The translations under genes were made by a program, and so were the position numbers. The notes beneath the pieces were generated by a model, which searched no databases, was not told where the DNA came from, and saw only the letters and a program-made list of their open reading frames with translations. Shown in pieces: positions 20,553 through 64,000 of a stretch of DNA of 64,000 nt. The stretch comes from a virus. Position 1 is the stretch's first letter, and each line of letters opens with the position of its first letter. The stretch is from IMG/VR virus record IMGVR_UViG_3300035523_000146. One strand, written 5' to 3'.

Positions 20553-20828
20553 TCACCTCACAGTCATCAACTGAGCCAGCCGTTCAGCTATCTGTTCGAC
20601 GCGTACTGGCTTGCTTTTCTTGTCAAGACAAAGGTTGTCTTCAGGGATATCGATCCCGAGCTGCGTCCTGAGCTCCACGGTTACCTCCATCCCGTTCAAA
20701 CTGTCAAATTCGAGTAGGTCTGTCAGAGGGCAAGTGGCAGGGCCAATCTCAGATGGTGGCCGGCCCGACATTTCCTGGTAATGACCAATAACCTCAATTA
20801 CCAGAGCAAGTAGCTGCGCGCTCGACAT
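20553..20828 (-). CDS. Acyl carrier protein-like
   Basis: 91 aa from ATG 20828 with AGGAGG RBS; FDSLNGMEV phosphopantetheine-site motif in helical context. Confidence 0.75.
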   Translation of the reverse strand: MSSAQLLALVIEVIGHYQEMSGRPPSEIGPATCPLTDLLEFDSLNGMEVTVELRTQLGIDIPEDNLCLDKKSKPVRVEQIAERLAQLMTVR

Positions 20829-20841
20829 TTTTCTTGACCTC

Positions 20842-20870
20842 CTTACCGGTTGGTAATATATTCTTACCGG
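20842..20870. promoter_or_regulatory. Candidate operator in the divergent promoter: CTTACCGG repeated at 21-bp spacing with an inverted GGTAA between
   Basis: CTTACCGG at 20842-20849 and 20863-20870, GGTAA at 20852-20856, in the about 100-bp AT-rich gap between divergent genes. Confidence 0.45.
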
Positions 20871-20926
20871 CGTGGACGTCAATGAAAAAGTTGAAAAAAT
20901 AACATCGTGTTTCAAATGGAGGGGCT

Positions 20927-22086: not shown

Positions 22087-23025
22087 TTATGTGCCGACCT
22101 TTTTCTTTGCAGAGACGTCAAATATTTCGTCGGTCAACATGGATTCGAGCCGATCGTTATTCAGCAATTTCAGGATCAACTCCACATTCTCTTCGGTTGT
22201 TATGATCTTGTCGCCGTCAAACGTCACTGGCCAACCTTGCGCAGTGCATACCAATTTCAGGTTTGCCATGAAATCAGGTTGCTTATAATAGCCATTCTTC
22301 TTAATCATGGCCATCCGACGAAGGAAATTCAACCGCACACCGGTCGCGCTCCGGATCACCTCGACGTCATCGATCAGTCCCGAACTATGAAGCTCCCGCA
22401 AGAGATCATCCCGACTTCTCTCCATACCCGCACGAAAATTCATCGCCGCCTCAAACTTCTTCTTATCCAAGACGAACACCAGACCATCGTATGCAAAGAA
22501 ATCAATCTTCTTCTCCAGCTTGAAGATCTGGTCTTCAGCAACATCCATGAGAATGTGGTCGCGAAAAACGGCGTTAAGGGTCCGTCCCTTCTGCTTCAAC
22601 TTCCAGCCTTCGGGGATCTTATGAACTGCCAGAATGCGTTCGCTCTGCGCTTCCATGGCAATCGCATAAGCCCAGGAGTCGTAAAGTTGGTCCGCTGACG
22701 TTACCGACGGAGCAGCACTGCCCTCGGCGATTTGGTCGTAGATGGCCTGAAGGTCAGTTTCTGGCATCCTAAGGCCTACTGCTTCACCGGTATCAAGTTC
22801 TTCCGAGAGGAACTCATAGGGCTCAACGTGGTTAGCGGATCTTACCGCAGACGACACGATGTCCGAGAGTTTTCGCTGCAGTGCAGCTTCCGTCCGGACT
22901 GCGAGGGCATCATACTTGGCGACACCCGCGCGCATACCGCGTTTGATCACCCACAGGTTCGCGTGCGCGCGTGCAAACGACAAGGCTTGCAGTTTCTTCA
23001 GGCTCTTCGTCAGTGCCGATATCAT
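22087..23025 (-). CDS. kwaB: Kiwa KwaB-like (DUF4868) protein
   Basis: IFKLEKKIDFF...FEAAMNF core typical of DUF4868; coupled downstream of a TM partner gene. Confidence 0.75.
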   Translation of the reverse strand: MISALTKSLKKLQALSFARAHANLWVIKRGMRAGVAKYDALAVRTEAALQRKLSDIVSSAVRSANHVEPYEFLSEELDTGEAVGLRMPETDLQAIYDQIAEGSAAPSVTSADQLYDSWAYAIAMEAQSERILAVHKIPEGWKLKQKGRTLNAVFRDHILMDVAEDQIFKLEKKIDFFAYDGLVFVLDKKKFEAAMNFRAGMERSRDDLLRELHSSGLIDDVEVIRSATGVRLNFLRRMAMIKKNGYYKQPDFMANLKLVCTAQGWPVTFDGDKIITTEENVELILKLLNNDRLESMLTDEIFDVSAKKKVGT

Positions 23026-23576
23026 TGGGCTTTCTCTCCTGTAGGAACGATGTAGAGGAAAGGCGATAACCGCTCCATCTTGTATTCCTTGCCCTGCGCC
23101 AACTCGATTTTCGACAGAAATATGCCTGTCCGCGGCTTGCCGGACTCCTCAAATTCGACTTCATACAGACCCCAGCCGAGCAGCGCAAGAAAAGGGTTAA
23201 GGAATATACTCTGCGTCCTGATAGCAAGAACAAGCAGTATTCCCAGAAACATCAGCAGCGCAGAGATGTCCTGCCACTTGCCGAAATCTACGCTAAAGAA
23301 CGACACTACGTAGGGGATGGAATACGCCGCGAGGTCATTTGACCGCAGGGATACACGTTTCGTCGTAATGAGGAATTGGCCGCGGCAACAACTCATTGCT
23401 GCGAAAAGCAGAACTCCGCTGGCAACGGCGACAGTAAACGCAGAGTAGACGAAGACGCTGTTCTTAAAGCAGTCCTGTTTTTCATCAAAGTCGCGTATCG
23501 CGAAAAGCAACGCGAGCGGCGCATACGCGCTCACCGCGATTGCCGCTGCGAACCCGAGGCGCGGTTTCATAAGCAA
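23022..23576 (-). CDS. kwaA: Kiwa KwaA-like membrane protein
   Basis: Several TM helices; YSIPYVVSF and IFLNPFLALLGWGLYEV; 4-bp overlap with the kwaB-like gene. Confidence 0.7.
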   Translation of the reverse strand: MLMKPRLGFAAAIAVSAYAPLALLFAIRDFDEKQDCFKNSVFVYSAFTVAVASGVLLFAAMSCCRGQFLITTKRVSLRSNDLAAYSIPYVVSFFSVDFGKWQDISALLMFLGILLVLAIRTQSIFLNPFLALLGWGLYEVEFEESGKPRTGIFLSKIELAQGKEYKMERLSPFLYIVPTGEKAQ

Positions 23577-24087: not shown

Positions 24088-24257
24088 AATCTTAATCCTG
24101 CGCTATATTCATAGGTGATATTAGGAACAGTCAAGCTCTTTACTCACAGGAGTTTCACATTTGCGCTATCCAGTTCGGAGCCGTCAGATGTTATCCATAT
24201 TTTGTCTATTGCGTGCGCTGTTTCGATTGGTATAACTCGCTATTTGAGGCGTTAACC

Positions 24258-25760
24258 ATGATTTTTGACCGAAAGGATCTATATCGAGTTCCACGCGTAG
24301 CTCCCACTCCGGAGAAGAGCTCCTTTAAGCGGCAATCTCTGCGACCTTACTCCGCATCCGGACGCCCGGGATGGCTTGTTAAGTGGACCAATCCACATGG
24401 AAGACGTTCGACGGCTTCTCTCAGTACGCGCGACGAGACCGAAGCGAAAGCCGTCGCGCTTGACCTCGAACGCCTTCTCAACGACCCGACGTACTGGGAC
24501 ATCAAGGATGGCGATCCCAGATGCGTTCATTTCCATCCCAGAGCACTCGAAATCTTCTGCCGGCGCCCGGCGCGAGCGTGTCCATCGACGGCGGCTGTCT
24601 CTGAGGACGCAATCCAGTTCTTCCGGACGATGCCATCCGATTGGAGCCCTAAGAGCTGGTACATCCCTGTTCCGGAACTCAACGAACTTCGCATCGAGCT
24701 TGCCAACAAGGAACGCATGGTCGCCAGACTTGAGCAGGAAAAAGAAGTGTGGAATCGCGAACGCATGGAACTCCGCAAGCGCCTAAACAAACACTGCACA
24801 GCCACAATGAGCGAGGCGCTTGAAGAATTCGAGAGATACTACCGCAACGGACATGCTCCAGAAACGGTGAGTCAAGTCTTGCGCGTGAATCGTCAGTTGG
24901 CTGAAGCTGTGGGCATGGATACTCTGGCTGGCCTCGTTACCGGCGCCGAGATCAATCAACTTCTGTACAACTACACTAACGCCGGGCGCAAAGTCTGCCA
25001 ACGAACGCGCAGACGGGTAAAGGCGTATCTGTCTACCTTCTGGTCTTGGGCTGTCCGCCAATACGAACTAAACGGAAATCCCATCGCTCACGTCCACGTG
25101 ATCCCTGCTGGCGCGCCTGAGTCAATTGAGGCGGTGAGGAGCTTTCAGGATCTAACGACCATGGTCAGTGCACTTGCTGACCGTCCGTATTGGCAAGCTT
25201 GGGTTGCGGTCGCCACCCTGGCCGGTCCTCGCTGGGGAGAACAGGCGGCCATCAGGATCGCAGACGTGAATCTCAATGATGGCTACATCCGCATTGCCGG
25301 ATCAATCACTGGCCGCGGCACAAAGACAGGAAGACAACGCAACGTTCCGATTGAACGGACCACTCTTATGCCCATCCTTAAGAAATTCATGGCGGACGAG
25401 CCGCATCGAAATGGGCTGCTCTTCCCTTCGATCAGCGCTGGACACGGCGCAACGAAGGACGGGCTCTGGCGGGCACAGACGTGGCACAAGTATTGGTTTG
25501 GCGGCCACAATCCCGACGGAGAATTTGTGCAGGGTATATCACAGGCTTTGCGTGCGAAACGTGATGCGTACTTTTGGGAATATGGACCAAGGGAATGGCG
25601 CCATTGCGCCGGAACCGCCATGGGTCACGCCGGAATGTCGACCCTGCGCATTTCCCAGTGGCTTGGCAATAGCGAAGCGATTTGCCGTCGTCACTACGTC
25701 GCTCCCAGTGGAGCAGCTAGCTGGCCCCTCAAATGGACAGTGAACCCATACATTGAGTAG
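24258..25760 (+). CDS. Tyrosine integrase
   Basis: TLAGPRWGE (R), TKTG (K), PREWRH, WLGNS, RRHY (Y); stop codon overlaps the tRNA-Pro fragment. Confidence 0.9.
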   Translation: MIFDRKDLYRVPRVAPTPEKSSFKRQSLRPYSASGRPGWLVKWTNPHGRRSTASLSTRDETEAKAVALDLERLLNDPTYWDIKDGDPRCVHFHPRALEIFCRRPARACPSTAAVSEDAIQFFRTMPSDWSPKSWYIPVPELNELRIELANKERMVARLEQEKEVWNRERMELRKRLNKHCTATMSEALEEFERYYRNGHAPETVSQVLRVNRQLAEAVGMDTLAGLVTGAEINQLLYNYTNAGRKVCQRTRRRVKAYLSTFWSWAVRQYELNGNPIAHVHVIPAGAPESIEAVRSFQDLTTMVSALADRPYWQAWVAVATLAGPRWGEQAAIRIADVNLNDGYIRIAGSITGRGTKTGRQRNVPIERTTLMPILKKFMADEPHRNGLLFPSISAGHGATKDGLWRAQTWHKYWFGGHNPDGEFVQGISQALRAKRDAYFWEYGPREWRHCAGTAMGHAGMSTLRISQWLGNSEAICRRHYVAPSGAASWPLKWTVNPYIE

Positions 25761-41820: not shown

Positions 41821-44800
41821 ATGGCAGCGGAAGCGGGTGGACCAAGCATGGCGGGTGGCGTATCGTATCAAGCGCTCGCGATTGCGCGTGCCCTGCTCGA
41901 TGTCTTCGTGGGACGCGCAGAGTGGGTGCGGGTCGAGGCGCCGGAGCAGTCCGACTTCGGTCGTTCTGATCTCGTCCAGGTCGCCGTTGACGATTTCGTC
42001 GTATGCCGCAAGAGCTCTCTGGAGTTTTACCAAGCGAAGTCGAGTGCACCAGGCGGCGGCGTATGGACTGTTAAGAAACTTGCTCGCGAAGGAATCCTCG
42101 AGGACTTCAGAACACAGACTACGGGCACGTCCCGGGCGACGTGCATCCTCGTCACTCCCAGTCCCTGCCCCCTGTTTGGCACTGTGGCGGAAAGGGTGAG
42201 GAGCAGCACTACGTTCAGTGAGTTCACGGGTAATCTGGGAAAGGCGCACGCAGAACAGTTTCGCCAGATGTACACCCAACTCAAGACAGACAAGAAGTCC
42301 TGCCATCGTCTACTTCATCGTTGGCACCTCGATGCGGTCTCAGATCGCTCACTGGCGGAATTGATCCGCCAAGTCGTTGAAGGTCGCTTTGCCCACCCGT
42401 CAGCAGCGTTCGAGTGTCTGGTGTCGTTCGCAGTAAGGGCGATGCAGTCACGTGCGAAGCTGGACGCCGAAGCCATACGACGGTTCTTCGACAGCATGGG
42501 CGTATTCGACGCGCCGAAGGCGAATATCGAGTCACTCCTCGGTTCAGTACGGACGGCGTGCGCCGCCTTGAGAATAGCGAAGAAGAGTATCAATGGCGTG
42601 GCTATCCAGCGCGAAGTCGTGGTGAAGCTTGCCGAGTGGGTGCTTGCCCCGGAAGGCCGAGTAGCTGTCTTGCTTGACCGCGCGGGCACCGGTAAGACTG
42701 CCGCACTTGCGAGCCTGATGGAAACGCTTGACGCAAAGGATTGTGTCGTTATCGGCGTGAAGGCGGACGCGCTGGCTTCGTTTGCTTCTGCAGCCGAACT
42801 CCAAGACGGACTTGGCCTATCAGACTCTATACCATCCATCGCATCTACGCTTTCGGTACAGGGCCGAAAAGTGGTTGTCATGCTGGACCAAGTGGACGCT
42901 CTGTCTGCGGCGATGGCACACGATTCCGCCGGTATTAAGGTTCTGCTGGGGGTCGTGCAGCAACTTCAGACGCTTCCAGGCGTCAAAACGATCCTTTCGT
43001 GCCGTGAGTTCGATTGGCGCTATGATGACAGACTTCGGTCCTTTCGAGACAGCCAAGCGACTGTGTTCACAGTGGGCCTGTTCAGCCGCACCGATGTGGA
43101 ACGGATTCTGCAAACCGAGTCATTGACCCTGACAAACCTCCATCCCGCGATGGATGCACTCCTTCAAACCCCCATTTACCTCGATGCGTTTGTGGAGATG
43201 ATCCACCGCGAGCGAAGCCAGAGCGTTGAGTGGACACCCGCGCGGGCGCAAGTCTACACATTGCAGCAACTCTACGAGCGACGTTGGTCTGCGACCCTCC
43301 GCAGGGCGCGGGACAGCGCGACTGATGTTGCCGCGTGCGACCGCGCCGTTGGGCAACTTGTAGACCAGATGTCGGCGCGACAAGAATTGTCGATACCAGA
43401 TGCAACCGTCAATGCGACCGACCTTGCGGCAGTCGAATGGCTCTCCAGTGAAGGCATATTGGCGCGAGCACAGCGCTGCATCCGGTTCTTTCACCAAACA
43501 TTCTTTGATTTCATGGCCGCCCGGAGGTTCGTCGGACGCGGCACACTGTTAACAGATTATCTGTTGAAAACCGAGCAGAGCCTGTTCTATCGGCCGCTCG
43601 TGCGGCAAGTATTGGAACACGTTCGTGAGACGGACCGCGGAGCGTATTTTCGCGAGTTGCCACGGCTCTTGGCCGAACCGCGGATTAGGAAACATATCAA
43701 GGCAATGGTGCTGACCTGGCTTGGGCAGTTGGCTAACCCAAGCGCAGAGGAATTGAGCGTATTCGAACTACTGCTGAGTGACGGTGCGGGACGCATACGC
43801 GCTCTTGGCTATATGAAAGCAAATGCAGCTTGGTTTGACCTCCTCAGCCCAGCACGCTTCGAGCGCTGGCTGGCCACCTTGCCAGATCACGAGATTCACA
43901 CGGCCATCTGGTTCCTTCGCGAGACCATAGGAACTCGCCAGAAGGAAATCGAGCATCTGCTACGACCATACTTGGGGCGCAGTCCTGAATGGAATGGACG
44001 CGTTGGGCTCTGTCTCTCGGGCATCAAAGATAACTGGCAAGATATCTCGGTGCGCCTCTTGCGGGACGTTCTTGCCGACGAGGCATCACAGCCGGAATGG
44101 CACTGGCAGCATTATGCGCTCGAAGACCTCGCCAAGTTCAGGCCCGCGGAGGCTGCGGCCACGATAGGGGTATTCCTGAAGCGATACGTACCCGAATGGT
44201 TGGCGTTCCGGTCCAATGCAGCGGATGAGAAGTCCCAAGGTGCTCAAAGCCGAACGGCACAAGGATTCCTGTACGATGTGCACGGACTTTGGGAAGCCGT
44301 TAAGCACGTGGTAGAGTGTGCTCCTGGAGAGTTCCTCGAGGCCGTCCTGCAGCCTATCCTGCTGGCCATGGAGGCTACGTGCGAGCGGCGCTCGGGCGGC
44401 TACAGGCACGACCACGCACTTTGGCTCCACGAGAAGGAAGAACATGTCCACGACGGGTGGGTGCGGCTCCTGTGGGCTTTTGCCAATGCAGCCAAAGTAC
44501 TGGCAAAGGACGATCCAACCCGACTTCGGCGCCTCACAACGCAGATGCTCAATAATGAGTTCGAGCCAATGCAGCAAGTGGTGGCGCTGACATACGCATC
44601 CCAGGGAGAGACATTCGCACCAGACGCGGCCGCGTTTCTGCTTAGGGACCTTCGGCGCTTCAAGCTTGGCATGCTGAGCGACGCCGTCTTGCGGAGCGCA
44701 ACATTGATCCAAGCCTGCTCGCACTCCTGGCCCCCGGAGCTGTTTGCTAAGGTAGAATCTGCGATATGTAGTATGAAGCCAAGGCATCCGAAGAGCACCA

Positions 44801-46344
44801 AAGAGATCGCGTGGCATCAGGAGGAAGTGCTGGAGCTACTCTCCGCACTCGATGCGCCCAAGCTAAGCGAAAATGGTAAAAACCTCCTTGGTCAATTGCA
44901 TCGCAAGTTCCCTGAGACCGCGCCGCGTTCTCGGGTGTCAATTGACGCCGGCTTTGTCGGTCCCCCGATTTCACCAGAGGGCATCAAACGGATGGGAGAC
45001 CAGGCGTGGCTGGGCGCGATGCGAAAGTACACAGGCGATTGGCAGCCCCGCACTGGAAAACCGATAGGCTTGAGCGGTGGGAGAAGTGAGCTCGCTCAGG
45101 CGCTGCAACAGCGCGCGAAAGAGGACCCAGAGCGCTTCTTCAACCTCGCCAACGAGAAGATGGACTCATCATTTCATGTTGACTACGTAGCAGCGATCAT
45201 CACGGGGCTGTCGGAGGCCGGCGCGCCAATCGAGCATATCGAGAAGTTGATCGACCGCTTTGCCAGCGCGATTGACAGGGAATGCGTCCGCGAGGTGTCC
45301 TCGGCGATCGGCAAGTATGCAGAGAAGCCCGTTCCCAATAGCCTTGCGAAACTGCTCGAGAACTGGGCGCTAACAGCCTCCGCCGACAAGGGCTGCAATT
45401 CCCAAGATCTTGTCACCGATGGACTCAACACAGAACGAGGCGGTGCATTATGGAACCTTGGCGCGATTCTGCTGAAAGCCGAGCCGCCGCAACGCGCGGC
45501 ATACCTGGACGTGGCCGAGAAGGTAATTCCTGATGCATCATTAGGGGTCCGTGCCGTGTGCATTCAGTTCCTCACGTACGCAATTCCGGCTGACCCACTG
45601 CGAGCGTGTGAAATCTTCCGCCGGATGGTGCGGTCTGAACGTGAGCTTCTCAGGAGCGGGGCCTGCGCCGACTTCGTTTACCGGACAACGCACAAGCATA
45701 GCAGTGAAACAGCCTGGGCGGTGAAAGCCATGCTTGCCGATGCTGAGGACGAGAAGGCGCGGGAGGCGGGCGGGCGGTTAGCGTGCTTGGCTGCGTTCGA
45801 AAACCCTGAGATGGTTGGCCTGCGAGACATGTGTCTTTCCGGCGACGCGGCAATGAGAAAGGGGGCCGCAACCGTCTACGCGCACAACATCAACAGCGCG
45901 AAGGTTGGTGCCGAGTGCCGTTCCCGACTGAAGTCGCTATGGAATGACGCTGAGGCCCCCGTGCGCGCTGCGGCATCCGAATTCTTGAACCGACTTACGG
46001 CGGAGAATCTGCGCTCGTCATCCACGTTACTCCTGGACTGGACCGCGACGCCAGCATTCGACGAAAAGGAACTGGAGAACGCATCGAGAATACTGTCCGA
46101 CAATGCACTGGCTAATGCGCAGCTCACGCTTGAAATGGCAGACCGCATCACCAAGCGGGCGAGTTCGGATGCGGCGAGTTACCAGGGGGGGATGCTGTCC
46201 TTTTATCTCGTCCCTGCTATTGTCGCAGTGTACCATGATGTGCCCGAGTTGCGCGGGCGTGCAATGGATCTACTAGAGCAGATGGAGGAGTGGGGATGCA
46301 GCGAGGTCGCTGCAGCATACACCGCCGCCGATAGGGTGAACTGA
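41821..46344 (+). CDS. Avs/AVAST-like STAND NTPase with N-terminal Cap4/Mrr-like nuclease and C-terminal helical repeats
   Basis: GGVSYQ...VDD...YQAKS nuclease motif; RAGTGKT, VVMLDQVD, SCREFD, FFHQTFFDF; long helical C-terminus. Confidence 0.82.
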   Translation: MAAEAGGPSMAGGVSYQALAIARALLDVFVGRAEWVRVEAPEQSDFGRSDLVQVAVDDFVVCRKSSLEFYQAKSSAPGGGVWTVKKLAREGILEDFRTQTTGTSRATCILVTPSPCPLFGTVAERVRSSTTFSEFTGNLGKAHAEQFRQMYTQLKTDKKSCHRLLHRWHLDAVSDRSLAELIRQVVEGRFAHPSAAFECLVSFAVRAMQSRAKLDAEAIRRFFDSMGVFDAPKANIESLLGSVRTACAALRIAKKSINGVAIQREVVVKLAEWVLAPEGRVAVLLDRAGTGKTAALASLMETLDAKDCVVIGVKADALASFASAAELQDGLGLSDSIPSIASTLSVQGRKVVVMLDQVDALSAAMAHDSAGIKVLLGVVQQLQTLPGVKTILSCREFDWRYDDRLRSFRDSQATVFTVGLFSRTDVERILQTESLTLTNLHPAMDALLQTPIYLDAFVEMIHRERSQSVEWTPARAQVYTLQQLYERRWSATLRRARDSATDVAACDRAVGQLVDQMSARQELSIPDATVNATDLAAVEWLSSEGILARAQRCIRFFHQTFFDFMAARRFVGRGTLLTDYLLKTEQSLFYRPLVRQVLEHVRETDRGAYFRELPRLLAEPRIRKHIKAMVLTWLGQLANPSAEELSVFELLLSDGAGRIRALGYMKANAAWFDLLSPARFERWLATLPDHEIHTAIWFLRETIGTRQKEIEHLLRPYLGRSPEWNGRVGLCLSGIKDNWQDISVRLLRDVLADEASQPEWHWQHYALEDLAKFRPAEAAATIGVFLKRYVPEWLAFRSNAADEKSQGAQSRTAQGFLYDVHGLWEAVKHVVECAPGEFLEAVLQPILLAMEATCERRSGGYRHDHALWLHEKEEHVHDGWVRLLWAFANAAKVLAKDDPTRLRRLTTQMLNNEFEPMQQVVALTYASQGETFAPDAAAFLLRDLRRFKLGMLSDAVLRSATLIQACSHSWPPELFAKVESAICSMKPRHPKSTKEIAWHQEEVLELLSALDAPKLSENGKNLLGQLHRKFPETAPRSRVSIDAGFVGPPISPEGIKRMGDQAWLGAMRKYTGDWQPRTGKPIGLSGGRSELAQALQQRAKEDPERFFNLANEKMDSSFHVDYVAAIITGLSEAGAPIEHIEKLIDRFASAIDRECVREVSSAIGKYAEKPVPNSLAKLLENWALTASADKGCNSQDLVTDGLNTERGGALWNLGAILLKAEPPQRAAYLDVAEKVIPDASLGVRAVCIQFLTYAIPADPLRACEIFRRMVRSERELLRSGACADFVYRTTHKHSSETAWAVKAMLADAEDEKAREAGGRLACLAAFENPEMVGLRDMCLSGDAAMRKGAATVYAHNINSAKVGAECRSRLKSLWNDAEAPVRAAASEFLNRLTAENLRSSSTLLLDWTATPAFDEKELENASRILSDNALANAQLTLEMADRITKRASSDAASYQGGMLSFYLVPAIVAVYHDVPELRGRAMDLLEQMEEWGCSEVAAAYTAADRVN

Positions 46345-55943: not shown

Positions 55944-56183
55944 GCGCATGGGAAACGTTACAGACCGTCGCCTGCTGCTGGCTCCTCGTCGGCATCTTAT
56001 ACTGATTGCCGCTTGCGCCGCGGAAGCCAAGACCAGAGATTAAGCGGAAAAGCAAGCGCGAGCGTCTCCCGTGTGTGGCCGTATTGTCTTTTCAGCCAAA
56101 TATGGATACAAGCTATCTGCAAAATCATTGGTTGATTGCCGGGACGCGCCCTGGTTCGGGCTCAGACGATAAGGATACTCCAC

Positions 56184-59100
56184 ATGAAACGAGCTTCCCG
56201 GGTCGCGCTGGCTTTGGTGCTGCTGGCCTCATCCGCGCAAGCGGCAAACTGGTCCGACACCGGTTCAATGGGCACTGCCCGCTACTCCCACACATCAACG
56301 CTGCTGCAGAACGGGAGAATTCTCGTGGCGGGGGGATGGGATGGCAGCACGACGTTTGCCAGCGCCGAATTGTACGATCCGGCGACCGGCACGTGGACGG
56401 CTACCGGTTCGCTGGCCGCCGCGCGCAGGCTTCACACAGCGACGCTGCTTCCCAGCGGTAAAGTCCTCGTTGTAGGAGGCCGTGGTGCCGGCTATCTTTC
56501 TAGCGCGGAAGTATACGATCCCGCCGCCGGCAACTGGACAACCCTTAACCCGATGACCATCGGGCGCGCCTATCACACGGCGACGCTTCTATCGAATGGC
56601 AAGGTCCTCGTCACGGGGGGGTACAATTCCAGTGGCGGTTTCCTTTCCAGCGCGGACGTGTACGACCCGGCAACGGGCTTGTGGTCCGCTGCCGGCGCCA
56701 TGGGCGCCGGTCGCTATTTGCACACGGCAACATTGCTGCAGAACGGGAAGGTTCTCGTTGCGGGGGGCTACAACGCCAGCGTGTCTCTTTCCAGCGCCGA
56801 ATTATACGACCCGGCCACGGGCAACTGGACGGCTACCGGTTCGCTGGGCACCGCGCGAAGGTATCACACGGCGACGCTGCTGCCCAATGGGAAGGTGCTC
56901 GTTGCCGGATGGTTTCTCAGCGCGGAAGTGTACGACCCGGCGCTGGGCTCATGGTCTGACACCGGCGCGATGGCCACCGCGCGCTACAGTCACACGGCGA
57001 CGCTTCTGCCCAGTGGAAAGGTCCTCGTGGCTGGAGGCATTGGCAGCGGATATCTTTCGAGCGCGGAAGTATACGATTCAGCGACAAATGCGTGGTCAAA
57101 TGCCGGTCCATTGACTGCCGCGCGCGCGCTGCACACGGCGACTGTGTTGCCCAGCGGCAAGATTCTGGTCGCGGCGGGTTACGACGGCAGTACGGCTCTG
57201 TCCAGCGCCGAGGTTTATTACTGCCCAGGAACCGCTTCGTGGGCAACCACAGGTTATATGATCGCTGCGCGCCAATATCACAAGGCGACGCTGCTGCCCA
57301 GCGGGAAGGTGCTCGTCGCGGGAGGAAGTAACAGCGGTGTTCTTTCCAGCGCGAACGTGTATGACCCGGCCCTTGGCAACTGGGCGGCCACCGGTGCGCT
57401 GGCCACCGCGCGCTACGATCACACAGCCACGCTGCTGCCCAGCGGGAAGGTCCTCGTCGCGGGGGGCGGCGGCAACGGTGGTTCTCTTTCCAGCGCAGAA
57501 GTATACGACCCGGCGACGGGCCTCTGGACGAGCACCGGTGCGCTGGCCACGGCGCGCAAGTATCACACGGCGACGCTGCTACCCAGCGGGAAGGTCCTCG
57601 TCGCGGGTGGGTATTACTACGATGGCACCGATCATTATCTTTCCAGCGCGGAAGTGTATGACCCGGCGACGGGCGCCTGGACGAGCACCGGGTCGCTGGC
57701 CACGGCCGCGGCGCGCTACTATCACACGGCGACGCTGCTGCCCAGCGGGAAGGTCCTCGTCGCGGGGGGCTATGGCAACTTCGGGTATCTTTCTAGCGCG
57801 CAAGTGTACGACCCAGCGACGGGCAATTGGACGGCTACTGGTGCGCTGAGCACCGCGCGCTACTATCACACGGCGACGCTGCTGCCCAGCGGGAAGGTCC
57901 TCGTCACAGGCGGCGACAACGGCAGTATTCTTTCCAGCGCGGAAGTGTACGACCCGGCCACGGGCGCCTGGGCGGCCACCGGCTCGCTGGCCACCGGGCG
58001 CTACTCTCACACGGCGACGCTGCTGCCCAGCGGGAAGGTCCTCGTCGCGGGGGGCGCCGGCTACGGCGTTATTTTTTCCAGCGCGGAAGTGTACAACCCG
58101 GCCACGGGCGCCTGGGCGGCCACCGGCTCGCTGGCCACCGGGCGCTACTATCACACGGCGACGCTGCTGCCCAGCGGCAAGGTGCTCGTCGCGGGTGGCA
58201 ACAGCGACGGCTTCAGCGGATTTCTTTCCAGCGCGGAAGTGTACGGGGAGGATTTGGGGTACTTGGCGCCTTGGCAGCCGAGCATCAACGGGGCGACGTC
58301 GCCGCTTGTTCTTGGCACAGCCTTAAGCATTCAGGGTGCGCAGTTCAGGGGGCTTTCAGAGGCATCGGGCGGATCAGGTAACAATTCGGCAACAAACTAC
58401 CCTGTAGTCGAACTCCGCAGCATGATTAATGAACACACTGCGTTTCTGTTGCCCGATCCAGAGACGCCCTGGACAGACTCGAGCTTCACCAGTCTGCCGG
58501 TAACAGGGTTTCCCAAAGGCCTGGCTTTAGTCACTCTGTATGTCAATGGCATACCCAGCGCGGCTAAACCGGTCCTCATCGCCAAACCAGTGGTATCGCT
58601 GCAGGCCGCCGGATTCACCTCACCTACCACGGCGGGAGTGGCGCATCAGATAACTGTCACCGCCAAAGATGAAGATTCCCAAACTGCCATTGGCTATACC
58701 GGTTCGATTAAGTTTACAAGTTCCGACACACAAGCGGTGTTGCCCACCGATTACACGTTCGCTTCCGGTGACAAGGGTGTTCACTCTTTCAGTATTACGC
58801 TCAAAACCGCGGGCGGTCGTTCCATCACGGCTACCGACAAAGCGACAGGAACGATCACGGGCACCCAATCCAACATCCTGGTCAGTCCTGAAGCCGCCAG
58901 TGTGCTGGAAGTCTGGTACCCCTTGACGACGACCGCCGGGGTTGCTCGCAATTTCTCACTGACAGCCAAGGATGCCTATGGAAATACAGCAACGGACTAT
59001 ACGGGAACGATCCATTTCACCAGCTCTGATCCGCAAGCTGTGTTACCTGCAGACTACACGTTCTCTTCCAGTGTTAAGGGATCTCAATCCTTTGTCGCTA

Positions 59101-62100
59101 CGCTCAAGACGGCCGGCAGTCAGTCGATCACCGCGACGGACAAAGCGACCGGAACGATCACGGGCACGCAGTCCAACATCACGGTCAATCCTGCGGCCGC
59201 GAGCGCGCTGGTAGTCTCCGGGTTTCCCTCGACGCCGACCGCCGGGATTGCTGGCGATGCCACAGTGAGAGCCAAGGATGCCTACGGGAACACCGCAACC
59301 GGATACACGGGAGCCGTCCATTTCACCAGTTCTGACCCGCAAGCTCTGCGGCCAACGGACTACACGTTCGTTTCCGGTGACAACGGGGTTCACTCTTTCA
59401 GCATTACGCTCAAAACCGCGGGCAGTCAGTCCATCACGGCGACAGACACAGCGACCGGAACGATCACGGGCACGCAGTCTAACATCATCGTGAACCCCGC
59501 AGGCGCCAGCACGCTGCTAGTGACCAACTTCCCGTCGACGAAGACCGCTGGGACTGCTGGCAGTGTCTCAGTGACACCCCAGGATGCCTATGGAAATACG
59601 GCAACCGGATACAGGGGAGCTGTCCATTTCACCAGTTCTGACCCGCAAGCGCTGCGACCTGCGGACTACACGTTCGTTTCCGGTGACAACGGGGTTCACT
59701 TTTTCAGCATTACGCTCAAGACCGCCGGCAGTCAGTCCATCACCGCGACGGACAAAGCGACCGGAACGATCACGGGCACGCAGTCGAACATCACCGTGAA
59801 TCCGGCGGGCGCCAGCACGCTGCTAGTCTCCGGGTTCCCGTCGACGCCGACCGCCGGGATTGCCGGCGATGCCACGATAAGAGCCAGGGATGCCTACGGG
59901 AATACAGCAACCGGATACAGGGGAGCCGTCCATTTCACCGGTTCTGACCCGCAAGATCTGCTGCCCACGGACTACACGTTCGTTTCCGGTGACAACGGGG
60001 TTCACTCTTTCAGTATTACGCTCAAGACCGCGGGCAGTCAGTCCATCACCGCGACGGACAAAGCGACCGGAACGATCAAGGGCACGCAGTCCAACATTAT
60101 GGTGACTCCTGCAGCCGCCAGCGCGCTGGTAGTCTCCGGGTTTCCCTCGACAACGACCGCCGGGACTGCTGGCGATTTCTCAGTGACAGCCAAGGATGCC
60201 TACGGAAATACAGCAACCGGATACCGGGGAACCGTCCGTTTCACCAGTTCTGATCCGCAAGCTGTGCTGCCCGCCGACTACACGTTCGTATCCGGTGACA
60301 ACGGGGCTCGTTCTTTCAGCATTACGCTCAAAACCGCGGGCAGTCAGACGATCACCGCGACCGATACTGTTACGAGCACGATCACGGGCACGCAGTCCAA
60401 CATCACGGTGACTCCCGCCGCCGCCAGCGCGCTGGTAGTCTCCGGGTTCCCATCGACGACGACCGCCGGGGCATCTGGAAATGTCACCGTGAGTGCCAAG
60501 GATCCCTATGGAAATACGGCAACGGAATACAGCGGAACCATTTGTTTCACCAGCTCTGATCCGCAGGCTGTGCTGCCCGCCGATTACATGTTCGTTTCCG
60601 GTGACAAGGGTGTTCACGCCTTCAGCGTTACGCTCAAAACCACAGGCACTCAGTCCATCACCGGAACAGACACAATCACCGGCGCGCTTACAAGCACACA
60701 ACCTGGCATTACGGTATCTCCCGCAAGCGGCAAGTTGGTTGTTTCGGATTTCCCCTCGCCAACGACTGCCGGGGATTTGGGCAGCGTCACTGTGACGGCC
60801 AAGGATCTTTTTGATAACGTGGTTACTGGGTACACAGGAACCATTCATTTCACCAGCACGGACGAACAGGCGGAGTTGCCGGCGGACTTTACGTTCGCGT
60901 CCAGTGACAACGGCGTTCACAGCTTCAGCGTCACGCTCAAGACCGCTGGCAGTCAGTCCATCACCGCGACGGACATAGTGCCTGGAACGATCCCAGGCAC
61001 GCAGTCTGACATCGATGTGAGCCCCGCGCCTGCCAGCACCCTGTTCGTGTCCGGCTTCCCCTCGCCAACGACCGCCGGGAACGCCGGCGTCGTTACGGTG
61101 ACGGCCAAGGATCTCTATGCGAACACAGTGACGGGTTACACAGGAACCATTCACTTTGCCAGCATTGATGAATTGGCGGACCTGCCAGCGGACTATACAT
61201 TCGTGCCCGCTGACAACAGCGTTCAAACCTTCAGCATTACACTCAAGACCGCAGGCAGCCAGTCCATCGCCGCGACGGACACAGAGACAGGAACGATCGC
61301 CGGCACGCAGTCCAGTATTGTCGTGAACCCAGCTGCCGCCAGCACGCTGGTGCTATCCGGCTTTCCATCACCAACGATCGCCGGGGACCCAGGCGATTTC
61401 ACTGTGATGGCGCAGGACATTTATGGAAACACTGCCACCGGATACACAGGAAGCATCCAGTTCACCAGCACGGATGGCCAGGCGGATTTACCTGGCGAGT
61501 ACACATTCCTGCCTGGTAACAATGGCTTTCAGACCTTCAGTTTTGCGCCCAAGACCGCGGGCAATCAGTCCCTGACCGCGACCGACACCGTAACAGGAAC
61601 TATCACCGGCACGCAATCCAGCATCATCGTGAACCCGTTGGGCGCCAGCACGCTGCTCGTGTCCGGTTTCCCCCAGGGTCCGACGGCCGGCACTGCTGGC
61701 GATATCACGGTCACAGCGAAGGATCTTTATGGAAATACAGTCACCGGCTACACGGGAACCGTCAGCATCACCAGCACGGATGGGCAGGCGGTGCTTCCCT
61801 CAGACTATAACTTCCTTTCCGGTGATGCCGGCGTTCACAACTTCAGCGTCACACTCAAGACCGCAGGCGACCAGTCCATCATCGCGACGGATAGCCTGGC
61901 TGAAACCATTTCGGGCGCCCAGGCGAGCATTACGGTGAACTCGGCCGCCGCCAGCACGCTCGTAGTCGCCGGCTTCCCCTCGACAACGACCGCCGGGAAT
62001 GCCGGAACAATCAGTGTGACGGCTAAAGATCCTTATGATAACACTGCTACGGGATACACCGGGGTTATTCAGTTCAACTGCACGGACGTGCGAGCTGCAC

Positions 62101-64000
62101 TTCCGCTACTGTATCAGTTCCAGCCCGAAGACAACGGCACGCAAACATTTAGCGCAGCACTTTCAACTGCAGGCACGCAATCAATAACTGCCAAAGACAC
62201 TGTGACGAGCACCATCATCGGCACGCAATCCAACATTGCGGTCCAGGCGGGATCGGCGCATCATCTAGCCATGGAGACCCAGCCTTTCCCCTATAGCCAG
62301 GTCGGCGAGGTATTTACAGAGCAACCATCCGTCCGCATCGAAGACGCCTGGGACAACCTAGTCGCATCCGACAGCAGCACGGTTGTCACCGCCGCGATTG
62401 GCAGCGGCCCTGGCAATTTACAGGGAACACTGACGGCGCCGGCATCTGGGGGCGTGGCCACGTTTGCAGATTTGGCGTGTGACACCGCTGGCATTGTAAC
62501 AGTGCGATTCGCGGGCGATTCGCTGCTCGGAGCGACATCTGGCAGCATCGTGGTTGACTCACTTAGCCAAACGATCACCTTCGCCGCGCTGACTAACAAG
62601 GTATTCGGCGACGCGCCGTTCACCGTGAGCGCCACAGGCGGCGCGTCCGGCAATCCAGTCACGTTCGTTATCGCCAGCGGTCCAGCCACGATCAACGGCA
62701 GTGAAATCACCCTCACCGGCGCGGGCTTGGTGACGGTCCGTGCCTCGCAAGCCGGGAACGCAAACTACAGCGCGGCGGCGGATGTTGATCAGTCGTTCAA
62801 CGTCGCCCAGGCCGCGCAGGCGATCACCTTTGGCGCGCTTTCCGGCAAGACCTATGGCGACGCGCCGTTCACGGTGAGCGCCACGGGCGGCGCGTCCGGC
62901 AATCCAGTCACGTTCGTTATCGCCAGTGGTCCAGCCACGATCAATGGTAATGAGATCACGCTTACTGGCGCGGGATTGGTGACGGTGCGTGCTTCGCAAG
63001 CTGGAAACGCGAATTACAGCACGGCGGCGGACGTTGATCAGTCGTTCACCGTGGCTAAGGCGAACGCTACAGTGACGCTCAGCGGCTTGAGCCAGACCTA
63101 CGACGGAACGGCCAAAAGCACGACGGCTACGACAAGCCCGACGGGACTGCCAGTTAGCATCACCTACGACGGTTCGACCACGCCGCCGAGTGCAGCCGGA
63201 AGCTATGCCGTGGTCGCGACAAGCACCGATGTTAACCGCAGCGGTTCGGTCTCTGGCACGCTGGTTATCGCCAAAGCGGACGCGACCGTGGCGTTAGCCG
63301 GTCTCAACCAGACCTACGACGGCAACCCGAAGGCCACTACCGCGACTACAAATCCACCAGGACTGGCCGTGGTTCTCAAGTACAACGACTCACCCGCGGC
63401 GCCCAAAGATGTCGGAAGCTATGCGGTGACGGCGGCTATCTCGGATGCAAACTACCAGGGGAGCGCGGGCGGCGTGCTCACCATAGCGGCTCCAAACGTG
63501 GCACCGGCCATTGACTCTCCGCCGACCATCAGCCCGGGTCACCCCAAGGCTGGCGAAAGCGTGGCGTTCTCAGCCAGCGCCAGCGACAGCAACAACGACG
63601 CTCTGACGTACACATGGAATTTCGGAGACAACACTACTGGCACGGGCGCGGGTGTAAGCCACGTCTATGCCGCTGCCGGAACCTACACCGTTACTCTTAC
63701 CGTCAGCGACGGCACGAAGACCACGACCAGCAGTTTGAGTTTGACTGTGGCCCCAGCACAGACCGGCGGAGGGGACGGGGGCGGGCCCGTCCTGCCGCCC
63801 AGTCAAGATATGGACGGCGATGGATTCTCGGATCAAATCGAGACCACACTCGGCTCGAATCCCAGCAACGCGTCTGATACTCCCGGCGGCGCGGCCAAAC
63901 CGACTGCGGCAGGCAAGTTGTCCGTCTCCAAGTTGAGCATCAAGCTGAACTTCGCCAAGCCGCAGGGAAACGACAGCATCGGCCTATCGGGCCTGCTTCT
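56184..64000 (+). CDS. Giant secreted Kelch-repeat / Ig-like-repeat / MBG / PKD surface protein, 3'-truncated by window edge (over 2600 aa)
   Basis: Signal peptide [20 protein letters not shown]; frame checked open where translated, and no stop-terminated ORF appears in the track for this frame. Confidence 0.92.
56250..58250 (+). repeat. 14 coding Kelch repeats
   Basis: 14 copies of HTATLL..G.VLV.GG...S.E.YDP counted manually. Confidence 0.9.
58600..62250 (+). repeat. 12 coding Ig-like repeats with about 306-bp period
   Basis: 12 copies of KD.YGN....Y.G...FTS.D counted from about 58667 to 62023. Confidence 0.88.

Follow-up and report, generated by a model that had tools for sequence, protein, structure and literature searches.

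The thymidine hypermodification pathway of phages M6, ViI, SP10 and PhiW-14 (5-HMUDK plus an amino-acid:DNA transferase) shares with the locus described here a TS-type hydroxymethylase, a P-loop kinase and HMUDK_hel, and its chemistry passes through a C5-methylene electrophile that can be trapped by a thiol (PMC8989533). The phage pathway serves phage self-protection, draws on free amino acids or polyamines and has no reported carrier (PMC8989533), whereas the genes described here are chromosomal, controlled by a repressor and located in a defence island. The closest experimentally tested system is DS-4 of E. coli ('NTTI'; DefensePredictor, Science 2026), which was validated against phage with no mechanism stated, and which is made up of a TS, an adenylate-kinase-like dNMP kinase, an HMUDK_hel protein, a TIR protein and Nmad2 (PMC13092281). 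The present cassette is a regulated relative of DS-4. Both encode a TS-family enzyme, a dNMP kinase and an HMUDK_hel protein together; DS-4 lacks an acyl carrier protein (ACP), an XRE/M78 switch and a second TS-fold gene, whereas a profile scan beside the present cassette found neither TIR nor Nmad2. Phage protection has been demonstrated for DS-4 alone, and a defence role for the present genes is suggested by their island context, with a Kiwa system adjacent.

The regulatory genes of the locus resemble the DNA-damage-responsive switches of the CapH/CapP type (also ImmR/ImmA and DdrO/IrrE). The HTH and M78 proteins match the capH and capP profiles and have the same sizes, and the divergent promoter contains a repeated operator. 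Known switches of this type are two-protein modules without a carrier, in which ssDNA stimulates repressor cleavage, whereas here a third gene, that of the ACP, is always attached. CapP can carry a cysteine switch, and not every CapP homologue has one (10.64898/2026.05.16.725639). The corresponding cysteine, which lies in the loop after HExxH, is absent from the M78 subfamily found here: among 46 M78 sequences, no conserved cysteine was found between HExxH and the third zinc ligand.

Carrier proteins are established in lipid, polyketide, peptide and cell-wall chemistry, and in our literature searches we came upon no report of one acting in the modification of DNA or nucleotides, or in immunity against phages. 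The protein considered here shares with the type II ACPs (E. coli AcpP, mitochondrial ACP and mycobacterial AcpM) the four-helix fold, the D-S-L serine at the start of helix II and an acidic helix II, and its family profile matches these proteins with E values of 1e-6 to 1e-3. Unlike the type II ACPs, its family has invariants of its own (Pro34, IQxxSG and NxF) and has no fatty-acid, PKS or NRPS partners, being found always inside a repressor-controlled, nucleotide-modifying cassette. Both the ACP family and its functional setting are new, and phosphopantetheinylation of its members is very likely.

The window, by which we mean the whole 64,000-nucleotide stretch of IMG/VR record IMGVR_UViG_3300035523_000146 that was analysed, had been the subject of a preliminary description that placed a stand-alone ACP gene at 20553-20828. 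Those coordinates are correct, and the strand is now fixed as minus (20828 to 20553); the plus-strand frame of the interval is interrupted by stops and the reverse strand is open. Translation yields the 91-residue product with an FDSL motif that had been described (P0001, containing LEFDSLNGMEV), and the gene is indeed the first of a minus-strand operon in which HTH, M78, TS-fold and kinase-HMUDK_hel genes follow. A strong Shine-Dalgarno sequence, AAGGAGG (20844-20838), lies 9 nt 5' of the ACP ATG at 20828. The region between this operon and the divergent gene contains two CCGGTAAG boxes with 21-bp spacing, at 20870-20863 and 20849-20842, as well as overlapping sigma-70-like promoters on both strands (2 sites in the promoter scan against 0.4 expected). 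The features are collected in Table 1.

Table 1. Features of the ACP locus, with coordinates in the window and the evidence for each
Feature	Coordinates	Strand	Evidence
Stand-alone ACP-family carrier protein, 91 aa	20553..20828	-	Translation, Pfam PP-binding, AlphaFold, Foldseek
Divergent promoter/operator region, ~99 bp	20829..20926	.	Sequence reading and promoter scan
XRE-type HTH repressor, CapH-like, 117 aa	20196..20549	-	Pfam HTH_31/HTH_3; PADLOC capH 1.2e-11, full length
M78 (ImmA/IrrE) zinc peptidase, CapP-like, 287 aa	19336..20199	-	Pfam Peptidase_M78 3.8e-17; PADLOC capP 4.9e-18
Divergent thymidylate-synthase-fold enzyme (TS2), 263 aa	18558..19349	-	NCBIfam TIGR03283 1.3e-10 (weak, archaeal TS); model
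dTMP-kinase-like P-loop domain fused to HMUDK_hel, 566 aa	16861..18561	-	HMUDK_hel (PF18723) 1.7e-105; Thymidylate_kin 7.8e-12
Divergent TS-family gene (TS1), 336 aa	20927..21937	+	Pfam Thymidylat_synt 3.2e-21; phrog_5131 6.3e-65

The HTH gene of the window starts 3 nt past the ACP stop, and the M78 peptidase has its HExxH motif at residues 80-84. A cysteine two residues N-terminal of this motif occurs in 44 of 46 M78 homologues and is replaced by alanine in the window's protein. The TS2 enzyme has an invariant FPC motif with Cys174 (alignment A4), and its model (pLDDT 94.3) has the thymidylate-synthase fold. A search of PDB sequences with the TS2 profile gave no match. Foldseek gave 396 matches at E <= 0.001; among the matches listed were TS, MilA and phage dCMP hydroxylase, the top TM scores among those listed being for the phage dCMP hydroxylase and the CMP hydroxymethylase MilA. 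The kinase-HMUDK_hel fusion matches phrog_2396 (4.6e-56), and TS1 is probably a dUMP/dCMP hydroxymethylase-type enzyme.

Beyond the cassette, PADLOC recognized an adjoining Kiwa pair at 22087-23576 (KwaB 1.4e-96, KwaA 2.5e-46), and integrase genes are present at 43-1248 and 24213-25760; the integrase genes are consistent with a mobile defence island. The earlier statement that the window contains no PKS or NRPS stands, the giant ORF at 56136-63998 being a Kelch/PKD surface protein, and a search of the 64-kb window with profiles and with queries from related loci likewise found no PPTase-like or AMP-ligase-like ORF, as had been noted. A 1507-aa ORF at 41821-46344 gave no Pfam match at E <= 0.001.

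The window gene encodes a genuine ACP-type protein with an ACP fold. Its Pfam PP-binding (PF00550) score of 27.1 bits (E 5e-6) exceeds the 20.8-bit cut-off, NCBIfam returned weak matches to generic ACP models, and PADLOC and PHROGs had no family that matched it. The AlphaFold model, built with a 51-sequence family alignment (A1), reached a pLDDT of 94.7 and has four-helix topology (helices at residues 3-20, 34-37, 43-57 and 77-90); its best Foldseek matches were all ACPs or PCPs, with TM scores of 0.6-0.78. When the family profile was compared with PDB sequences, 123 matches were obtained at E <= 1, and all 60 of those listed were acyl carrier proteins. The invariant serine of the family aligns in register with the DSL serine of the PDB ACPs, including mitochondrial ACP, and the model places this residue, Ser43 of the FDS motif, as the first of helix II. 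A DSL serine that varied among homologues had been named beforehand as evidence against a carrier, and Ser43 proved to be invariant in 51/51 locus copies and 150/150 database representatives; Pro34 is conserved in 50/51 and 150/150, respectively. Ser43 is the predicted attachment site for phosphopantetheine.

At E <= 1e-10 the family comprises 697 clusters (50% identity). Almost all of the listed members are about 90-125 residues long, and of the two that are longer, P0046 has an over-called start and P0056 sits on a 713-bp contig; a search for fused, longer forms found none, which is weak evidence. Members score 47-115 bits against the family profile and housekeeping ACPs only 20-27 bits, and the family is therefore distinct. 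ACP-seeded searches covered 401 genomes each of Planctomycetota and Acidobacteriota and were positive in 4 from each phylum, with all eight matches inside the cassette; 401 Bacillota genomes gave no match, nor did tblastn searches of phage and plasmid collections. Metagenomic contexts (Logan/ENA/JGI) agree with the placement of the ACP in the cassette, and the family was observed solely beside TS2-HMUDK_hel effectors. An ordinary ACP of fatty-acid or secondary metabolism, lying beside the operon by chance, was also considered, and the generic nature of the Pfam and NCBIfam matches would suit it. Such an ACP would, however, be expected neither to separate so clearly from the housekeeping proteins in profile score nor to keep a gene order that is fixed across phyla, and FAS, PKS and NRPS genes are absent from the window; cross-phylum synteny effectively rules this explanation out.

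The 80 related loci, which were collected using the HMUDK protein as seed, span Acidobacteriota, Chloroflexota, Planctomycetota, Cyanobacteria, Verrucomicrobiota, Proteobacteria and others. The ACP family is present in about 55 of them, roughly 2.0-2.4 kb upstream of HMUDK on the same strand, and in these the order ACP, HTH (XRE), M78, TS2, HMUDK is fixed. Absence of the gene from homologous loci was the other finding that the preliminary description had set against its own reading; since the gene occupies the same position in about 55 of the 80 loci and the serine is invariant, neither contrary finding was made, and the fixed block supports the original picture of a stand-alone ACP heading an operon of nucleotide- or DNA-modification type. 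That the ACP is a component of the cassette is close to certain. In 44 loci the candidate HTH start lies between -11 and +17 nt from the ACP stop, with a 4-nt overlap in 21, and these junctions indicate that the ACP is translationally coupled to the HTH. Loci without HTH-M78 are also without the ACP.

The same comparison divides the suggested co-conservation with the TS genes: the ACP travels with the 263-aa TS2, and it does not do so with the divergent 336-aa TS1, since roughly half of the cassettes with an ACP have MazG-MazG_C in place of TS1. Type A cassettes, to which that of the window belongs, have TS1 3' of the block, and type B cassettes have MazG-MazG_C there; in most related type A loci TS1 lies 3' of the kinase gene, whereas in the window it is divergent. 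Type B cassettes keep the ACP and have no kinase domain. Optional additions include dCTP-deaminase-like genes, TIR plus Nmad2 (about 21 loci) and radical SAM genes. TS2-HMUDK_hel-MazG_C occurs without an ACP in L075 and L083. In two Bacillota loci (L107:3922-6917 and L108:7518-10467), a three-gene module, in which a TS2 homologue is accompanied by a radical SAM enzyme and a UDG-Panacea fusion, adjoins helicase/HNH genes, with no ACP, HTH, M78 or HMUDK.

A different carrier is found in a Lachnospiraceae locus (L063:6183-11453), where a PP-binding ACP and an AMP-binding ligase lie directly 5' of genes for a dNMP kinase, HMUDK_hel, a TS and a formyltransferase-like protein, and a second ACP is encoded at the opposite end (L063:17167-17409). 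This pair is similar to DltC/DltA-type pairs, in which a small stand-alone carrier serves a modification that is neither lipid nor polyketide. The cassette of the window, unlike DltC/DltA, lacks a ligase, and the ACPs of L063 are unrelated to its own ACP family (E about 5e-4). L063 has recruited a carrier protein independently, and there a loader is present.

Fourteen related loci encode an AcpS-type PPTase (PF01648), mostly convergent and past MazG_C but in one case directly 5' of the ACP, and L044 encodes an Sfp-type PPTase divergent from the block. The cassette PPTases lie on the effector side and do not form part of the regulated operon. They are found mainly where the ACP has lost the canonical glutamate of helix II (Ser+5): in 10/20 such loci as opposed to 2/31 loci that retain it (Fisher p = 6e-4), and, among type B cassettes only, in 10/13 as opposed to 1/11 (p = 0.0013), p values that ignore shared ancestry. 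Because the PPTases accompany mainly those ACPs that have lost this recognition-helix residue, Ser43 is probably modified; the pattern is that expected if the PPTase arms the ACP and host AcpS suffices when the helix is canonical. The helix II of the window's ACP is canonical (DSLNGMEV), and in all four related genomes that were checked there are 2-4 PPTase genes. Host AcpS would presumably add the 4'-phosphopantetheine arm to Ser43 of the window's ACP, and in relatives with a diverged helix II the cassette-encoded PPTase would do so. The ACP fold, the invariant serine, the synteny and the co-occurring PPTase genes are directly observed; phosphopantetheinylation of Ser43 is inferred, and we consider it highly probable that the protein is a genuine holo-carrier with the arm on this residue.

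If the protein is instead an ACP-fold subunit with no arm, it could be an apo adaptor or structural component, or its serine could be phosphorylated by the P-loop kinase. ACPs are structural in solved complexes (MmpL5-AcpM, EmbAB-AcpM and complex I), and the window itself has no PPTase. This explanation nevertheless seems very improbable: the serine is invariant and in the canonical position, two types of PPTase are encoded alongside it and occur in step with the divergence of helix II, and type B cassettes retain the ACP though the kinase domain is absent.

The cassette is probably inducible and anti-phage, and the presence of Kiwa alongside, of TIR-Nmad2 in about 21 loci and of phage-validated DS-4 (PMC13092281) counts for a defence context. 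The best explanation for the ACP, to which we give somewhat less than even weight, is that it is a dedicated carrier protein whose arm thiol joins in the pyrimidine C5 chemistry. In this model the peptidase would cleave the repressor, leading to induction of the operon, and holo-ACP would then use its arm in concert with the TS-fold enzyme, HMUDK_hel or both. Since no loading enzyme is conserved, the reactive species would most likely be the free thiol, or else a small group loaded onto the arm by host enzymes. The thiol would add to an electrophilic exocyclic C5-methylene pyrimidine intermediate, giving a tethered or quenched modified nucleotide or base; a thiol traps the C5-methylene intermediate of a phage amino-acid:DNA transferase (PMC8989533). 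We put forward this specific thiol-C5 chemistry only tentatively, with appreciably less confidence than the general role. Also counted for an effector role are the restriction of the ACP family to the company of TS2-HMUDK_hel and the unrelated ACP and AMP-ligase of L063, 5' of the kinase, HMUDK_hel and TS genes. In a mirror-tree analysis, which is exploratory and ignores shared ancestry, ACP divergence tracked that of TS2 (partial r 0.43) and M78 (0.30) but not that of the HTH (-0.19), with the known interacting pair HTH-M78 giving 0.53.

A more classical version of the effector role would have an acyl or aminoacyl group loaded onto the ACP and moved by the HMUDK_hel enzyme onto a pyrimidine, of a nucleotide or of DNA, that bears a 5-hydroxymethyl or phosphomethyl group. 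The phage relatives do attach amino acids to 5-phosphomethyl-dU (PMC8989533), L063 couples its own ACP with a ligase, and both the invariant serine and the dedicated PPTases would be accounted for. Clustering of all flanking ORFs in the related loci, however, revealed no conserved adenylating enzyme, acyltransferase, ketosynthase or thioesterase in the roughly 55 cassettes, and none is found in the window; known amino-acid:DNA transferases, moreover, take free amino acids (PMC8989533). With no conserved loader in the cassette, a role as a classic donor of acyl or aminoacyl groups is unlikely.

Weighing against the favoured effector reading are the absence of a loader, and of a PPTase from the window, and the existence of the enzymatic core without the ACP, in DS-4, in L075/L083 and in the Bacillota TS2-rSAM-UDG modules. 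In the main alternative, holo-ACP would instead be the third part of a CapH/CapP-like module that binds the repressor or the peptidase and gates cleavage, a role that we regard as possible, though on the unlikely side. The thiol might, for example, act as a 'cysteine switch' in trans on the peptidase zinc, or the ACP might report the acylation or CoA state. The strict linkage of the ACP to the XRE/M78 pair keeps this reading alive: the ACP is always directly 5' of the HTH and translationally coupled to it, and it is missing wherever HTH-M78 is missing, while TS2 and HMUDK_hel do occur without it. The joint loss with HTH-M78 and the coupling to the HTH fit a regulatory role equally well. There is also no conserved loader, and the M78 subfamily does not have the internal cysteine described for CapP (10.64898/2026.05.16.725639). 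On the other hand, CapH/CapP pairs elsewhere function as two proteins (10.64898/2026.05.16.725639), HTH-M78 plus the ACP family has not been seen beside other effectors, the cassette PPTases lie at the effector end rather than in the regulated operon, and ACP divergence did not track that of the HTH in the exploratory analysis (partial r -0.19). A four-chain complex prediction of HTH, M78, TS2 and ACP scored 0.74, and a control with M78 replaced scored 0.77; the prediction is given no weight in either direction. We know of no precedent for an ACP as the regulatory partner of such a switch. On balance, effector chemistry is slightly favoured over the regulatory role.

These results describe a distinct ACP family of at least 697 sequence clusters that is locked into a multi-phylum cassette, in which phage thymidine-hypermodification enzymes are re-used under a damage-responsive switch and some versions supply their own PPTase. 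Knowledge of the cargo or target of the arm would make the mechanism of DS-4, the sole validated relative, testable, and could bring to light either undescribed base chemistry or a novel mechanism by which an immune protease is gated. A bolder proposal, and a doubtful one, is that the phosphopantetheine thiol may be the business end of the immune system, either through being joined covalently to C5-methylene pyrimidines by a TS-fold/HMUDK_hel enzyme or as a 'cysteine switch' in trans. The covalent variant, if true, would leave a nucleotide, or phage DNA under replication, with a tethered protein and would amount to a programmed DNA-protein crosslink; the trans variant, if true, would make the thiol the missing 'cysteine switch' of a CapP-like peptidase. 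In either case, if true, the carrier protein would be put to a use for which no precedent has been described.

Several of the related loci depart from the usual arrangement. In one cyanobacterial cassette (L070:3319-5754), an 811-aa protein stands in place of the ACP and the HTH domain; solely the CapH-like C-terminal helix is retained, 5' of M78, and for this reason the protein may be a protease-released effector. In L036 (14248-14892) and in L044 (6503-7129), a gene for a papain-like C1 peptidase separates M78 from TS2. The ORFs 5' of the HTH in L044 and L036 align in register with the ACP family when compared by hhalign, with probabilities of 10% and 1%, respectively; given this weak alignment, we take them as possible divergent carriers at most, even though a PPTase is encoded in both loci. 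Finally, L016:10692-17734 contains a remnant cassette with HMUDK, TS1 and PPTase genes followed by an interrupted TS2 fragment, which, as judged by eye from the ORF list, is broken by apparent IS-type transposase and retron/intron-like ORFs.
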